Part shown: positions 31,633-37,681 of the stretch, piece by piece
Layout of the letters: every line of letters begins with the position of its first letter
How positions within the stretch are numbered: position 1 is the first letter of the stretch
From: an uncultured Candidatus Saccharibacteria bacterium
GTDB lineage: Bacteria; Patescibacteriota; Minisyncoccia; Portnoybacterales; UBA2143
Length of the DNA stretch: 62,382 nt
NCBI GenBank assembly: GCA_964517275.1
Contig: CAZFBL010000002.1
Location: forward strand, 1-62,382
Direction: 5' to 3'
Notes under the pieces: model-generated
Database searches by the model: none
Told to the model about the DNA's origin: nothing
Seen by the model: only the letters and a program-made list of their open reading frames with translations
Translations under genes and position numbers: made by a program

Positions 31633-31824
31633 CTATCTTTCCGGAGACCCGTCATCAATATTTTCCGGAAGCTCATCCCCATGATAAGCTAGTTCTCCGC
31701 AAAGAGGGCAAACCCCTATGTATCCCAGGCCACAAGTAATTAGATATGTTTCGACCTCTCGATGACAACTTTGGCAGACAATCGTCGCCTTTATTTCAAC
31801 CTGCCTAATCTTTAATTCTCCCAT
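31633..31824 (-). CDS. Small Zn-ribbon protein (CQSC...CPLC)
   Basis: 63 aa, strong SD AAAGGAGG, own terminator. Confidence 0.7.
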   Translation of the reverse strand: MGELKIRQVEIKATIVCQSCHREVETYLITCGLGYIGVCPLCGELAYHGDELPENIDDGSPER

Positions 31825-32832: not shown

Positions 32833-32890
32833 ATTTCTAGTTTAACAAATAAATAAAAAAGAGGCCAAGTTCTTAAATAGAAAGAGAAAA

Positions 32891-32922
32891 GGCCTTTAGT
32901 TTTTAGAAAACAACTAAAGGCC
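32891..32922 (-). terminator. Terminator after the pyrB-like/Zn-finger pair
   Basis: GGCCTTTAGTT/AACTAAAGGCC stem plus U tail. Confidence 0.65.
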
Positions 32923-32925
32923 AGC

Positions 32926-33141
32926 TTATGGATATTTTTTTTTCAGGGCGTGAATTAAATTGCATTGATAAAAATAAGTCCCTGACTCTATCTCAAATTC
33001 TTTTTGGCAGTGGTTGCAAAAAAACACAATCATTTGCCGAGGAGGACTAGGCCTATTGATTACGTCTCTTATTCTCATAAAAGAGATGTATCTTCCCCGG
33101 CAATCAGGACAGCGGTAATCGCCGATTTCATTCCCAGCCAT
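32926..33141 (-). CDS. Small Zn-finger protein, possibly a PyrI-like Zn domain
   Basis: CPDC...CNHCQKEF; SD AAGGAGG; 15 bp downstream of the pyrB-like gene. Confidence 0.7.
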   Translation of the reverse strand: MAGNEIGDYRCPDCRGRYISFMRIRDVINRPSPPRQMIVFFCNHCQKEFEIESGTYFYQCNLIHALKKKYP

Positions 33142-33156
33142 TTCTCTCCTCCTTCT

Positions 33157-34176
33157 TTACAGAATCATTTTTAAGAGCGCCATCCGGACAAAGAGACTAT
33201 TCTGAATCTGCAGTTCAGAGTAAAGCGGAACTTTCTTAATATCCGGAAAGTCTCCTGGCCGGAAAGACAAATCCATAACCATTGACTCCTTGGGCAGCCT
33301 TTCCAGGACCTGGTCATTGACTGAATATTTATCCATCAATTCCTGATGTGAAAACATTTTATCCCTGACAACAAAGTTATCGCCGCCCAAGATTTTACCC
33401 GGAATCCGAGACTGATAGACCACCTGGACCTGGCCGGCTATCTCTCTCAAATCGTCAACTTCGATAAGCTGAGGGCCGTCCTTAGTCAAGTAATAATCCT
33501 TAATGTCCTGGCCCAGTTTCAAATTATCCGGCGCGACCGCGTATATTTTTACATTGTAATTAGCCAACAGATAACACAACGACCTGATTTCCCGATTGGT
33601 GAATAAATTGCCGGTCAAAGCTATCGACAAGCCGTCTATCTGTTTGAAAATATATCGAATTGTATAAAGGTCGGCAATCGCCTGGGTTGGGTGCTGATTG
33701 GCCCCATCGCCAGCGTTGATAACCGGCACATAGGAGACTTCCATAGCTCTCTTGGCTGCCCCGGCCAATGGATGACGCAAGACAATGACATCAGGCATAA
33801 ACAAACTTAACCCTCTTATTGTATCTTCCAGGGCTTTCTCCTTAGCCGTACTGGAAAATTCCTGCTCACCGCTAAATGAAGTGACCACCTTACCGCCGAG
33901 AGTACAGATGGCTATCTCAAAGGAAGCTCGGGTCCGGGTACTCGGCCGGTAAAAAACAGTAATCATATTCTTCCCTTTGACTTCTTTTTGCATCTCTGTC
34001 CTTATTCTCTTTCTTTTTTTTCTGTCTTCAGCCGAAAGAGCGCCTTCGGCTTCTTTTCTCTTCCAAATATCTTCTTGAACCATCCAGTTAGCCTTTTCGT
34101 CGGTCAATCCGAAAATTCGCTCAAGCGTCTCCGGGTCAAACTGCTGAGCCTCAATAATATGGCGCAATTCTTTCAT
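33157..34176 (-). CDS. Divergent aspartate carbamoyltransferase-like protein
   Basis: PSTRTRASFE, RHP, INAGDG, QHPTQAIADLYTI and RMALL retained; QKER and HPLP motifs missing. Confidence 0.85.
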   Translation of the reverse strand: MKELRHIIEAQQFDPETLERIFGLTDEKANWMVQEDIWKRKEAEGALSAEDRKKRKRIRTEMQKEVKGKNMITVFYRPSTRTRASFEIAICTLGGKVVTSFSGEQEFSSTAKEKALEDTIRGLSLFMPDVIVLRHPLAGAAKRAMEVSYVPVINAGDGANQHPTQAIADLYTIRYIFKQIDGLSIALTGNLFTNREIRSLCYLLANYNVKIYAVAPDNLKLGQDIKDYYLTKDGPQLIEVDDLREIAGQVQVVYQSRIPGKILGGDNFVVRDKMFSHQELMDKYSVNDQVLERLPKESMVMDLSFRPGDFPDIKKVPLYSELQIQNSLFVRMALLKMIL

Positions 34177-34232
34177 CTTCTCCTCCTCAAAAGATTTTAG
34201 TTCACAATTGACAAGGAACTTAAATTAACCAA

Positions 34233-34261
34233 AAAATAGCAAATTGATTAATAATTGTCAA
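34233..34261 (-). promoter_or_regulatory. Promoter for the pyrB-like operon
   Basis: TTGACA-N17-TATTTT with extended -10 TG. Confidence 0.55.
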
Positions 34262-34395: not shown

Positions 34396-35982
34396 CTACT
34401 TCCTTTTAAAAACCTGGGCCGTAAAAATATAGATATCAACTTGGCCTTCTTTCCAGCAATCCCAGGGTAAGCCAGCTTTTTGAGAGCAAAGCTGGCCCAG
34501 AAAAGTTTCTAAATCCCAATTATTTTCAGTAGCTACCTGTGGCAGAAAAACCCCCGACCGCTGCCCTTGTCTGATTTGAACACCGTGTTTGCCCAATTCT
34601 ATCTGGCGCCAGTCGTCTATTTTCCGCAAAGGACTTAAAACCGAAATTTCATACTCCAGTTCATCCAGTTCGCCGGCCTGAACCGGGTAAAAACGATTAT
34701 CTTGACTGGCCGCGGCAACCGCCATTTGAGAAACAGTCTGATAAAGAGGAAGACTGGCTTGTTCGTCTTCAGAAGAAAAAAGACCGATACATCCTCTCAA
34801 CTGCCCATCTTTTTCTAAAGTGACAAAAGCGCCCAAGGATTTATTCAACAAAGAATCGTTAACCTCAAATTTAGGAATTTTACCTTCCAAAACATATTCC
34901 TCAACAGAACTCTCAGCGATTTCCAAGAGCTTATTTTTTTGTGTTCGGTTAAGCCTAATCTCCGAAGACGTCTTTGATTTTTCGGGCCAGCTAAAGCTGA
35001 TTGCTGAATAGCCAACCACTTGCGATTTACTCGCCTCGCTGCCAAGCGGGCCGCTGACCGCCACATCCCCGGAATTGGCATATTTTAAAAGCTTAATCTC
35101 ATCGGCTTTCTTTTCCTGAGCAATAGCCATTAAAACCTCTACCGCTTCTTGGCCGCATAAACAAGTATCTAAATCAGGAATATTCTCTTGAAATAATTGG
35201 TCAATCGTTTCTTCTAATTTAGAAAGCTGACCAGTCAAAATTGCCTCAATTACCTTTCCATCTGCCTGATTGGCCTGTTCATAAGCAGGATAATGAGACA
35301 TATCTGAACTGGCAATGACTAAAGTTTGTTCATCAAGATGTTTAACTAAACTCTGGCTGATTTCTTTCAAATCATCGTCAGTCAATTGATTGACTAAAAT
35401 AGGAAGTATCCGAAAATCATTAAGAACCGTCTGCAAAAAAGGGAGCATTACTTCTAAAGAATGTTCCGACTGATGAGGCACGGAATCCAATCCGAATAAA
35501 GAATTTTCTTTAACTAAAGTTTTGGCTAAATCGGTAGCCAAATCAACCTGACCTAAAGGTGTTTGCCAAATATCGCTCTCGTCAATAACCGCCCTACTTA
35601 AATATTGGTGATGACTTGGGCCAATCAGAATAACTTTTTTTACCGCCTGAGCTTGAATAGCCTTAAAGCCGTAAGCGGCCACCGGTCCCGAAAAGGGATA
35701 GCCGGCGTGAGGCAAAACTAAACCCCTTATCTTCGCACTCTGAGCGGAATCATCGGGCTGAGGCAATTCGGCTTCTCCTAAAAATCGACTAATCATTTGA
35801 GTCAGCTCTTCTTTATCAGACGGATAAAATTGACCAGCCACAGCCGGTTGACGAATAGTTTTTTCTTGAAATATTTTTGACATAGAACCAGTCTGATTGT
35901 TTTCGTCCGTCTCTCTCAAGAAAAAAGAGTAAGAAATTCCTCCAATTACGATAATCAAAATAAAGAGATAGAATTTCCTCAT
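34396..35982 (-). CDS. AmmeMemoRadiSam protein B (MEMO1-like) fused to protein A (AMMECR1), with an N-terminal TM anchor
   Basis: IRQPAVAGQFYP, PHAGYPFSG, GPSH, EHSLEV, SSDMSHY, CLCG; then GAFVTL, LRGCIG, EISVLSP, GKHGV, SGVFLPQVA. Confidence 0.92.
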   Translation of the reverse strand: MRKFYLFILIIVIGGISYSFFLRETDENNQTGSMSKIFQEKTIRQPAVAGQFYPSDKEELTQMISRFLGEAELPQPDDSAQSAKIRGLVLPHAGYPFSGPVAAYGFKAIQAQAVKKVILIGPSHHQYLSRAVIDESDIWQTPLGQVDLATDLAKTLVKENSLFGLDSVPHQSEHSLEVMLPFLQTVLNDFRILPILVNQLTDDDLKEISQSLVKHLDEQTLVIASSDMSHYPAYEQANQADGKVIEAILTGQLSKLEETIDQLFQENIPDLDTCLCGQEAVEVLMAIAQEKKADEIKLLKYANSGDVAVSGPLGSEASKSQVVGYSAISFSWPEKSKTSSEIRLNRTQKNKLLEIAESSVEEYVLEGKIPKFEVNDSLLNKSLGAFVTLEKDGQLRGCIGLFSSEDEQASLPLYQTVSQMAVAAASQDNRFYPVQAGELDELEYEISVLSPLRKIDDWRQIELGKHGVQIRQGQRSGVFLPQVATENNWDLETFLGQLCSQKAGLPWDCWKEGQVDIYIFTAQVFKRK

Positions 35983-36009: not shown

Positions 36010-37308
36010 CTAAAACAAGCTGGCTTGTTTGGAAAAATTGCCTCGCTCTTCGTCTTTAAAAATCTTAATTCGACCGTATTCACCGTCATAACCCGGTTCG
36101 ATCTGGACCTCTTTTTGACGAACCCTTTTAATCCCCTCGGCTAGCTCCGGCCGGCCAGACTGTTCGACTTGTTCCGGACTGACATTATAGAGTATTTCAA
36201 GCTCCGAGCCAAAACGTTTAATCATACTCTTGTATTCTTCCCGAACTAGCTTACTGCTAACTCCGACTCCTTTGGCTTCAGCGATAATTTCCTCCAAGGG
36301 AACAAATTTTTTGAAGGGAATAACTTGTTCTGGAGACTCGCTTTCCTGACGGTCGGCCAAATCGTCAATCCGATGGAGAACGCCGATGGTTAAAGGCTTA
36401 CCGCATTGAGGGCAAATATTCTTTAGCTTCTTGGCTTCTTGAGGGTTTAAACGAACCCGACAATTACGATGGCCATCGTAATGATACCTGCCTTCTTCAG
36501 GAAAAAATTCAATCGTCTCCAAGAACTTCTGTCGGTCTTTGCTTTTAATCGCCTGGACAATAGCTGGATAGCTTAATTCCGTCTCAAAAACATTGGCCTC
36601 CCGACCGATCCGGGTTGGACTGTGGGCGTCAGAATTGCTAACCAGAGTCAATCGGTCAAGAGCCGACCAACGCCAGTTCATAGCCGGGTCAGAGCTTAAT
36701 CCGGTCTCGCCGGCGTAAATATACTGGCTGTATTCTTCAAAACATTCTCTCAAAGAATCAAAACCGGAATTAGCTCCAAACAGAGAGAACCAAGGCGTCC
36801 AGATATGAGCCGGGATAATAAAGCAATTTTCAGAAGTATTTAAGACAATCTTAACTAATTCTTTGGCATCCAGGCCCAGAATCGGTCGGCCATCAGCTTT
36901 AAGGTTGCCTATCCAGCCCAGGCGAGCATTAATTTTTTCGACTGTTTGGAAATCGGGAGCAAGAACGACAATATGGACTTTGCGAGTCCGATTATTCTTG
37001 GAATAGATACAGCTAATCTCGCTGGTCAGCAAAAAACGGGTCCCCTTATCTTGATGACTGCTATTAGGCAACCAATCTTCGTTAGACAGACCGGCCTGAC
37101 TTTTCTTTTTAAACTTAAAAAGACCTGGTTCGGCTGGTTCAAGTCTTTCTTTAAGCTCCTTTAACCAAAGAGGGTGGGTGAAATCGCCGGTTCCTAAAAC
37201 CTTAACACCTTTAATCTTGGCCCATTTATCCATATTTTCCAGGTCCATGTCCCGGGAAGTGGCCCGCGAGTATTTGGAATGAATGTGTAGGTCGGCAGCA
37301 AAACGCAT
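36010..37308 (-). CDS. Endonuclease Q-family PHP-domain protein
   Basis: ADLHIHSKYSRATS, GTGDFTHP, PAHIWTPW, ETGLSSDP, NSDAHS, YHYDGHRNC...CPQCG, PGYDGEYG. Confidence 0.88.
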   Translation of the reverse strand: MRFAADLHIHSKYSRATSRDMDLENMDKWAKIKGVKVLGTGDFTHPLWLKELKERLEPAEPGLFKFKKKSQAGLSNEDWLPNSSHQDKGTRFLLTSEISCIYSKNNRTRKVHIVVLAPDFQTVEKINARLGWIGNLKADGRPILGLDAKELVKIVLNTSENCFIIPAHIWTPWFSLFGANSGFDSLRECFEEYSQYIYAGETGLSSDPAMNWRWSALDRLTLVSNSDAHSPTRIGREANVFETELSYPAIVQAIKSKDRQKFLETIEFFPEEGRYHYDGHRNCRVRLNPQEAKKLKNICPQCGKPLTIGVLHRIDDLADRQESESPEQVIPFKKFVPLEEIIAEAKGVGVSSKLVREEYKSMIKRFGSELEILYNVSPEQVEQSGRPELAEGIKRVRQKEVQIEPGYDGEYGRIKIFKDEERGNFSKQASLF

Positions 37309-37312
37309 AATT

Positions 37313-37594
37313 CTATTTAAATCTAAACCTCTTTCTTATAGCCAAGACAACTAACCCATATTTGTCTATCTGCTCCTTTTTATAAAATCTCTCTGTATCT
37401 TTTGTATTAAATTTATACAATACTTCACATTCTATCTGCCGACCGGTAAGTTCTTTCGCCTTTTGTTTCTGCTCTTTTAGGACGAGAGTATCGCCGGGCT
37501 TGCACTTAAAATCGGCTAAACGAACCTCAAAGCGCTTTTTACCCTCAATAATTGCCTTAAAATATTCTTGTTGAACCTTTTTCTCGATTTTCAT
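37313..37594 (-). CDS. ASCH/PUA-like DUF3850 domain protein
   Basis: YFKAIIEGKKRFEVRLADFKCKPGDTLVLKE; true ATG at 37594 (the track start lies inside the tRNA). Confidence 0.85.
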   Translation of the reverse strand: MKIEKKVQQEYFKAIIEGKKRFEVRLADFKCKPGDTLVLKEQKQKAKELTGRQIECEVLYKFNTKDTERFYKKEQIDKYGLVVLAIRKRFRFK

Positions 37595-37608
37595 AATAAA
37601 AAGACGGG

Positions 37609-37681
37609 CGTGCCTGGCAGGATTTGAACCTGCGACCCTCAGCTCCGGAAGCTGATGCTCTGTCCGCTGAGCTACAGACAC
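37609..37681 (-). tRNA. tRNA-Arg(CCG), CCA not encoded
   Basis: GTGTCTG/CAGGCAC acceptor, TCAGC-TT-CCG-GA-GCTGA anticodon arm, GTTCAA T-loop. Confidence 0.94.

Follow-up and report, generated by a model that had tools for sequence, protein, structure and literature searches.

A 62,382-nt stretch of DNA from an uncultured Candidatus Saccharibacteria bacterium (contig CAZFBL010000002.1; hereafter the window) carries on its minus strand a gene for a 339-amino-acid (aa) homolog of PyrB, the catalytic chain of aspartate carbamoyltransferase (ATCase), at 33157..34176, and directly downstream a gene for a 71-aa zinc-ribbon protein (CPDC...CNHC) at 32926..33141. The 339-aa protein is neither a pseudogene product nor a standard ATCase. 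The trimer-type fold of ATCase is preserved, as is the complete half-site for carbamoyl phosphate (CP) or phosphate; the positions that have been replaced are those that shape aspartate binding (Q231, T168, E233, E272) and domain closure (E50, R234), and the change of HPLP to DLSF concerns the positioning of the carbamoyl nitrogen. On balance we think it somewhat probable that this positional ortholog of pyrB has been turned to some function other than that of ATCase, in which the CP/phosphate site is still used. An earlier inspection of the letters alone (the sequence-only reading) had described a degenerate PyrB and offered either a transcarbamylase with a new acceptor or a pseudo-enzyme. 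This was the right pair of options, because the departure from ATCase is real, conserved and constrained, and extends to the FxExSTR, RxQxER and HxLP motifs, all three of which fail.

Open reading frames (ORFs) and motif coordinates were read directly from the window; the features of the gene pair given below all lie on the minus strand. Active-site residues are numbered as in the E. coli enzyme, whose sequence was checked and is identical to 1ekx_A, and were compared with a set of 111 ordinary ATCases that the homolog search supplied. The group containing the window protein, which we call type C, comprises five lineages, three full-length and two represented by contig-end fragments, and members are counted only where their sequence covers the position in question. 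Its close relatives from the homolog search are P0002 (81% identity) and P0003 (66%); gene-context look-ups added the two partial genes (L027 and L031, 3′ or contig-end fragments).

The Pfam matches of the window protein are OTCace_N (5.7e-36) and, weakly, OTCace (1.9e-8). Its closest solved relative is Arabidopsis PYRB (1.3e-59), and its AlphaFold2 (AF2) model (pLDDT 90, pTM 0.90) matches ATCases in Foldseek with TM of 0.8–0.88. Against the ATCase equivalog TIGR00670 it scores 199.4 bits, below the cutoff of 236.95. The other full-length members of type C also fail (L001, 207.3; L005, 188.5), whereas canonical relatives, which we call type A (295), and longer ones, type B (238 and 247), pass.

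All CP ligands are kept: S52, T53, R54, T55, S80, R105, H134 and Q137. R167, R229 and R296 are likewise retained. STRT, which binds the CP phosphate (residues 79–82; 33931..33942), is invariant in the three full-length members of type C, and HPTQ, which supplies H134 and Q137 to the carbamoyl group (residues 162–165; 33682..33693), is intact in the alignment; retention of both had been recognized by the sequence-only reading. The changed residues are E50R, E86K, D162N, T168E, Q231P, E233K, R234I and E272D, together with H265D, P266L, L267S and P268F at the HxLP site. The replaced positions are invariant in 109–111 of the 111 ordinary ATCases. At most of them the three full-length clade members have acquired one and the same new residue, and the substitutions go far beyond chance.

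The replacements fall in recognizable motifs. GNLFTNREIRS stands where GDLxxGRTVRS is expected (residues 189–199; 33580..33612), with D162N, G166N and T168E and with R167 kept; D162 and T168 are each invariant in 111/111 ordinary ATCases. This had been described as NREIRS for GRTxHS, of which G166N and T168E stand; the arginine, however, is retained, and the supposed histidine is arginine in all 111. RIPGKI replaces RxQxER (residues 257–262; 33391..33408), retaining R229 and carrying Q231P, E233K and R234I, and is followed by a conserved 7-residue insertion in the 240s loop. DLSF replaces HxLP (residues 302–305; 33262..33273), a site at which the histidine and both prolines are invariant in the ordinary set and leucine is found in 110/111. 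The alignment and residue table confirm both the DLSF and the RIPGK replacements noted earlier. The FxExSTR signature reads FYRPSTR, position 50 being R, R and Q in type C versus E in 110/111 ordinary ATCases. The catalytic lysine contributed by the adjacent chain, K84, is present in the window, is arginine in L001 and is deleted in L005/L006. In the latter (P0002; L005 1626–2681) a 4-residue deletion in the 80s loop (FSS----KALEDT) removes the K84 position; it is no assembly error, since it occurs in contigs from two samples.

SxRT, HPxQ and HxLP define all known transcarbamylases, and FxExSTR and RxQxER set ATCase apart from the others (PMC4581275). Of the three family motifs the window protein therefore has two, SxRT and HPxQ, and it has neither signature of ATCase.

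A K/R/E-rich charged insertion lies at about residues 28–66 (33979..34095) and is part of a predicted helical hairpin (alignment and AF2; helices H15–43 and H49–63, pLDDT about 97). The basic insertion reported from the sequence is therefore present, but of its 37 residues ~22 are common to canonical sister sequences and only ~15 are clade-specific. It is the least constrained part of the protein (dN/dS 0.57 versus L005).

Set beside PyrB proper (TIGR00670; 6YPO/6YW9 from Arabidopsis, 1D09/1EKX from E. coli), the window protein shares the OTCace_N plus OTCace fold, 38–40% identity to the plant ATCase, the residues SxRT, R105, HPxQ, S80, R167, R229 and R296, and the chromosomal slot that canonical pyrB occupies in relatives. 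It differs in FYRPSTR, RIPGKI, DLSF, D162N, T168E, E86K and E272D, in a K84 that the clade does not conserve, in the charged helical insertion, in the 240s insertion and in its sub-cutoff equivalog scores.

These features belong to the clade and not to one contig. RIP[GS] and DLSF are found in 5/5 type C lineages, and GNL...REI in the four that are covered. At 112 positions conserved in at least 95% of 117 canonical ATCases, type C keeps the residue at 69, fixes a replacement at 17 (one new residue in every covering member) and varies at 26, the last including K84. A transcarbamylase phylogeny, which the sequence-only reading had proposed as a check, bears out a distinct group: in a neighbour-joining tree type C is monophyletic, has a long stem branch (0.157) and clusters with canonical type A (P0004–P0009) in a nine-member clade. 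Type A shares a shorter version of the N-terminal insertion. The extra divergence falls mainly in the aspartate domain: identity to ordinary ATCases there is 36% for type C versus 54% for type A, compared with 55% versus 63% in the CP domain.

Unusual closure residues are also found in the relatives. The E50–R234 pair has been lost together in two canonical type A proteins (P0004 and P0005; L010 and L007), which have Q50/S234, and in type B, which has Q50 with W234 (L014 8818–9972; L017 915–2084). The ATCases of this group of the candidate phyla radiation (CPR) are generally unusual. Type B proteins (L014 8818–9972, L017 915–2084, L028 346–1491, L032 642–1793) are 381–393 aa long, with an N-terminal extension of ~45 aa, STRTF for STRTR, RIQ[DN]EW and HPLPK. 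The two that were scored, from L014 and L017, just pass TIGR00670 at 238 and 247 bits. In front of the L032 gene lies a divergent DHO_dh-like gene, which has the motif NYSCPN.

Nei–Gojobori dN/dS for the type C gene is 0.32 between the window and L005 (dS 0.32, the least saturated pair), 0.13 between the window and L001, and 0.11–0.15 for deeper pairs. By domain the values are 0.29 (L005) and 0.16 (L001) for the aspartate domain and 0.25 and 0.11 for the CP domain; neighbouring genes have 0.09–0.24. The type C gene is under purifying selection, somewhat relaxed, and therefore is not a pseudogene. That it is a relic of reductive evolution in course of loss, with no function of its own, would fit the gradation among relatives from canonical pyrD–pyrB to no pyrB, a dN/dS above that of neighbouring genes and the 26 otherwise conserved positions that vary in the clade. 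Against these stand reading frames intact wherever sequenced in five lineages in spite of saturated synonymous divergence (dS about 1.7–1.9), dN/dS of 0.11–0.32, far below 1, in both domains, the 17 replacements identical in every covering member, and preservation of the Shine–Dalgarno sequences, the promoter-like site and the terminator. We regard loss in progress as very improbable, and rejected a decaying pseudogene on the dN/dS values and the identical fixed substitutions.

The type C gene is the positional ortholog of canonical pyrB in related CPR genomes labelled Saccharibacteria. The order shared with those relatives runs Mur ligase, Wzy_C, PHP/MJ0043_C, Memo-AMMECR1, pyrD (in some), pyrB and the small zinc-ribbon gene, and continues with DUF763 (in some), DUF72, sigma70, YidD, MFS and PolX. 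A transferred extra paralog was considered and rejected, synteny and the clustering with type A favouring positional orthology. Between the window and L008, flanking proteins are 66–84% identical, PyrB 49% and the small protein 39%.

The slot itself is found in five states: pyrD, canonical type A pyrB and the small gene (L008); pyrD, type C and the small gene (L005/L006); type C and the small gene without pyrD (window and L001); no pyrB, the small gene immediately following MJ0043_C (L025/26); and the long type B PyrB with the small gene. The pyrD of relatives passes the dihydroorotate dehydrogenase equivalog (377–382 bits versus a cutoff of 269) and keeps the catalytic cysteine of NISCPN; it lies directly upstream of pyrB also in L005, where pyrB is already degenerate. 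The window locus looks like one stage in a series from canonical pyrD–pyrB, through degenerate pyrB with pyrD and degenerate pyrB alone, to no pyrB. Because relatives carry intact pyrD and canonical pyrB, pyrimidine synthesis has not been uniformly lost in this group. The organism had earlier been expected to lack the pathway; this is an oversimplification in view of the equivalog-grade pyrD upstream of pyrB in syntenic relatives. The 62-kb window has no further pyr gene, as already noted from the sequence, and also no car gene or other source of CP (carAB, arcC).

From these observations a course of events can be proposed. Along a single long stem branch, the lineage's own pyrB would have changed so far that its product is no longer a standard ATCase. 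Trimer formation and binding of CP or another phospho-ligand would have been retained, and carbamoyl-aspartate would no longer be made efficiently, standard catalysis being lost or severely impaired. The protein might then act as a ligand-binding, non-catalytic protein or scaffold, or as a carbamoyltransferase with a different acceptor.

A simpler proposal is that the protein is a working, if unusual, ATCase in a partial pyrimidine route that has been kept, its kinetics retuned or its allosteric closure removed. It retains all CP ligands together with R167 and R229, it is under purifying selection, and in L005/L006 its gene stands in an operon with an intact pyrD and the small gene. Types A and B, moreover, pass as ATCases despite having lost E50–R234 (Q50 with S234 or W234), so that the group tolerates unusual closure residues. 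The aspartate pocket, on the other hand, is altered by Q231P, T168E, E233K and E272D; K84 is deleted in L005 and arginine in L001; DLSF removes both prolines of HPLP, including the Leu-Pro cis peptide; and all three full-length members score under the equivalog cutoffs. The family review describes no transcarbamylase without HxLP (PMC4581275), and pyrD is absent from the window and from L001. We consider a working ATCase unlikely, at perhaps one chance in a handful; what chance it has comes mainly from L005, whose operon still includes pyrD.

Only slightly less doubtful is a carbamoyltransferase with a new acceptor, in which the CP half-site was kept and the second-substrate pocket (240s loop, T168E, Q231P, DLSF) remodelled to accept another amine. 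It is the determinants of the second substrate that have changed, and the new residues are fixed (the 17 clade-invariant replacements); the 7-residue insertion in the 240s loop is conserved and the aspartate domain is under purifying selection. There is also a precedent in UGTCase. Specificity is set by the 240s loop and the second HxLP position, and UGTCase, formerly annotated 'pseudo ATCase', is the known non-ATCase enzyme that arose within the ATCase branch (PMC4581275). Like UGTCase, the window protein resembles ATCase in sequence and has an intact CP site, and its pocket for the second substrate is altered. UGTCase, however, has H(T/S)LP, an adjacent-chain lysine (K106), and S258 and K261 in the 240s region, whereas the window protein has DLSF and R-I-P-G-K and is neighboured by Memo-AMMECR1, DUF72, YidD and PolX, with no purine-catabolism context. 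Identity with UGTCase was rejected on DLSF versus H(T/S)LP. More generally, characterized switches of specificity all keep H-x-L-P and the adjacent-chain Lys/Gln of the 80s loop, but type C has lost HxLP, and its K84 and 80s loop are variable, the 4-residue deletion of L005 being one of the variants. No neighbouring gene hints at a substrate or pathway, and the window has no carAB or arcC.

Of the two forms that repurposing might take, we lean slightly towards ligand binding or scaffolding without catalysis, since neither K84 nor the 80s loop is under constraint and HxLP has been lost; in favour of the new acceptor are the fixed residues of the pocket and the conservation of the 240s insertion. 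Retention of a catalytically dead paralog from the pyrimidine pathway has a precedent: in class A (Pseudomonas-type) ATCases an inactive dihydroorotase-like protein, PyrC′, is kept under selection as a structural subunit. There it is the dihydroorotase that is dead and the ATCase that is active, whereas here the ATCase homolog has been remodelled and no pyrC-like gene is nearby.

The 71-aa protein has four invariant cysteines in its family alignment, C11, C14, C42 and C45, arranged as CPxC ... F[FY]CxxC (CPxC at 33100–33111; second knuckle, FFCxxC, at 33007–33018). Also conserved are I-S-F, F49, Y58 and a C-terminal helix ending L-[KR]-x-[KR]-Y-P. AF2 predicts three strands and a helix (pLDDT 78), and the gene has dN/dS of 0.31 versus L005. 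A word-based search gave 17 clusters of the family, and an exhaustive profile (hidden Markov model) search of 1.84 billion representatives gave about 40 short full-length members. Members are about 55–100 aa long, one is named from a Parcubacteria-group metagenome-assembled genome, and no Pfam family was found on any of them. By these searches the 71-aa protein belongs to a rare, unnamed, CPR-restricted zinc-ribbon family. Its best structural matches are the ribbons of NrdR and Rpa12/Rpb9 (Foldseek probability 0.85–0.98, TM about 0.45–0.5 over 45–51 residues), with E-values that are not significant (at least 0.14). The likeness to the N-terminal ribbon of NrdR and to TFIIS/Rpa12-type ribbons is that of a generic ribbon; the 71-aa protein has no ATP-cone or other domain.

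The sequence-only reading had likened this protein to the zinc domain of PyrI, the ATCase regulatory chain. As a minimal PyrI it would be a stand-alone zinc domain clamping catalytic trimers in the manner of the E. coli regulatory chain. The pyrBI gene order is matched, the size is near that of the PyrI zinc domain (PF02748; 1D09_B) and there are four cysteines in two knuckles. Linkage to pyrB is tight (11/13 lineages), and the string CNHCQKEF resembles CKYCEKEF of E. coli (CxxC[EQ]KEF). The resemblance ends with that one local string: the family conserves only CxxCxxxF, so that the CxxCQKEF match is specific to the window sequence and its K-E is not conserved. The first knuckle is CxxC versus CxxxxC in E. 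coli PyrI (C109/C114/C138/C141; sequence verified against 1d09_B), the N-terminal allosteric (nucleotide-binding) domain is absent, and the helix ending L[KR]x[KR]YP is a further difference.

Searches for PyrI homology were negative throughout. PyrI_C (PF02748) gave no Pfam match with the window protein (E ≤ 1) or with 17 members (E ≤ 10), and an NCBIfam search of the 71-aa protein was negative for PyrI. Against E. coli PyrI, hhalign with 4- and 17-sequence profiles gave probabilities of 7.8% and 4.7% over 15–16 columns, covering the second knuckle only. No PyrI chain appeared in phmmer and profile searches of the PDB, no ATCase regulatory chain was among the top 50 Foldseek matches (none of any kind at E ≤ 0.001), and the exhaustive search yielded no intermediate of PyrI length or architecture. 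The family, besides, accompanies PyrB proteins of three widely differing types, and in one case, L025/26, the small gene persists where there is no pyrB. PyrI homology was rejected on these grounds; the 'mini PyrI' finds no support in sequence or fold, and we think a minimal PyrI distinctly unlikely.

Linkage to pyrB was counted over 13 distinct lineages in which the gene directly upstream of the small gene could be assessed. A pyrB-family gene occupies that place in 11 of them: type C in five, type B in five (including the distant L033) and type A in one. The spacing is often 15–30 nt, or an overlap of 4–14 nt. No pyrB lies upstream in L025/26, and probably none in L023/24. Subtypes of the small protein do not track the PyrB type: in L017 a type B gene is accompanied by the window-like subtype, and in L031 a type C gene by the other one. 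Co-occurrence of the zinc protein with type C, expected by the sequence-only reading, thus extends to five lineages but is not specific, and the idea that the small gene and the degenerate clade strictly depend on each other was rejected, the gene being found also with types A and B and alone.

Gene order in the window is as had been noted, the 71-aa gene lying directly downstream of the PyrB-like gene as in pyrBI. After the TAA of the PyrB-like gene comes a gap of 15 nt (AGAAGGAGGAGAGAA) and then the start of the small gene, whose own Shine–Dalgarno sequence, GAAGGAGGAG (33146..33155), lies within the gap; that of the PyrB-like gene is GAGGAGGAG (34180..34188), and both sites are strong. Upstream of the pair is a promoter-like site, TTGACA-17-TATTTT (34261..34233; 10/12, TG-extended), which is a consensus match only. 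On the 3′ side of the small gene a terminator-like hairpin with a U-rich tail spans 32878..32922 (hairpin 32891..32922), with an 11-bp stem, a 10-nt loop, −17.4 kcal/mol and z −3.7; 0/200 shuffles were as stable. The short gap with its own Shine–Dalgarno sequence, and in this form the promoter and terminator, agree with what had been read from the letters. The 71-aa gene is probably co-transcribed with the PyrB-like gene and translationally coupled to it. Both ORFs of the window are in one reading frame (33141–33159), separated by TAA and five codons (RRRRE), such that stop-codon readthrough would produce a fusion; this arrangement is probably incidental, since the genes of L005, L014 and L028 overlap out of frame.

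The operon association of the small gene with pyrB is strong, and gene order alone suggests a physical complex. The probable role of the 71-aa protein is that of a protein partner, or of a regulator specific to the operon; as its subtypes do not follow PyrB and it survives without pyrB in L025/26, we infer the partner role from gene order only.

Several observations weigh against repurposing. Because R167, R229 and, in the window, K84 are kept, and because HxLP works through main-chain atoms, the protein may, to judge from its residues, have residual ATCase activity. In L005/L006 the degenerate gene remains in a pyrD–pyrB–small operon, and because the pyrD there is equivalog-grade it may still be serving pyrimidine metabolism. 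That pyrD has been lost from the window and from L001, and that pyrB is altogether absent from L025, fits a pathway being dismantled. Constraint is partly relaxed, the closest pair having dN/dS of about 0.3 compared with 0.09–0.24 in neighbouring genes. The independence of small-protein subtype from PyrB type, and the persistence of the small gene where there is no pyrB, count against a role of the small protein as partner of PyrB.

Some features of the surrounding loci are recorded here. The pyrB–small gene cassette (window 32926–34176, L005 1626–2883, L001 6001–7278) is closest between L005 and the window (dS 0.32–0.41), with L005–L001 at about 1.9, whereas for DUF72 and MFS the closest pair is L005 and L001 (dS 0.25–0.38). 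Since the cassette history differs from that of its flanks, this suggests exchange of the cassette by recombination among related genomes. Two genes upstream of the PyrB-like gene, the window has a 432-aa PHP-like (HIHSKYSRATS) plus MJ0043_C gene (36010–37308); its ortholog in L008/L009 (L008 2064–4913) encodes 949 aa and contains an intein with a LAGLIDADG endonuclease. Between them lies a fused Memo-AMMECR1 gene (34396–35982; 528 aa) with an apparently hydrophobic N-terminal segment, conserved in relatives, which occupies or adjoins the pyrD position of other lineages. DUF72 is downstream of the small gene in several lineages, directly or after an insertion of DUF763; several lineages have this insertion (L001 7300–8487, L027 971–2083, L033 526–732), but the window does not.

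A second small CxxC...CPxC protein (63 aa) is encoded at 31633–31824, between the MFS and YidD genes; it is conserved in a relative (L015 1946–2140) and its sequence is unrelated to the 71-aa family. L015 (PEUD01000007.1) is a 6.4-kb contig titled 'Candidatus Omnitrophica bacterium' that is syntenic with the Saccharibacteria-labelled loci; it has an N-run inside its MFS gene, beyond which the encoded protein is of a different character, and is probably misbinned or chimeric. At 37313–37681 of the window, the listed 122-aa ORF starts inside a tRNA gene (37609–37681, Rfam 67.9 bits), its true start probably being an internal methionine (MKIEKKVQQ...). The remainder of the 62-kb window is housekeeping: DnaE, ThrRS, Map, Adk, SecY, ribosomal proteins, EF-Tu and EF-G, with PilMNO, PolX, PNPase and the CCA-adding enzyme among the other genes.

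The literature searched contained no transcarbamylase lacking HxLP and no description of this zinc-ribbon family, and searches on pyrB in CPR or Saccharibacteria, on ATCase pseudoenzymes and on stand-alone zinc domains gave nothing relevant. We suggest, tentatively and with less than even confidence, that type C is the first transcarbamylase-fold family that has neither HxLP nor the aspartate signature yet retains a CP/phosphate site. It would form a new two-component module with a CPR zinc ribbon, serving as a sensor of CP or nucleotide precursors, as a scaffold or as an enzyme of new chemistry, and would have arisen as pyrimidine synthesis was being lost by reductive evolution in an episymbiotic lineage.

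Few enzymes have been studied as thoroughly as ATCase, and tens of thousands of genes are annotated by its motifs. Type C genes are labelled 'aspartate carbamoyltransferase' in public sources, a label by which a step of pyrimidine synthesis would be wrongly credited to their organisms. The small zinc-ribbon family is a candidate for a new ATCase partner or regulator across CPR lineages, independent of PyrI. If our reading is true, the locus would be a natural experiment in the repurposing of a core anabolic enzyme during CPR genome reduction.

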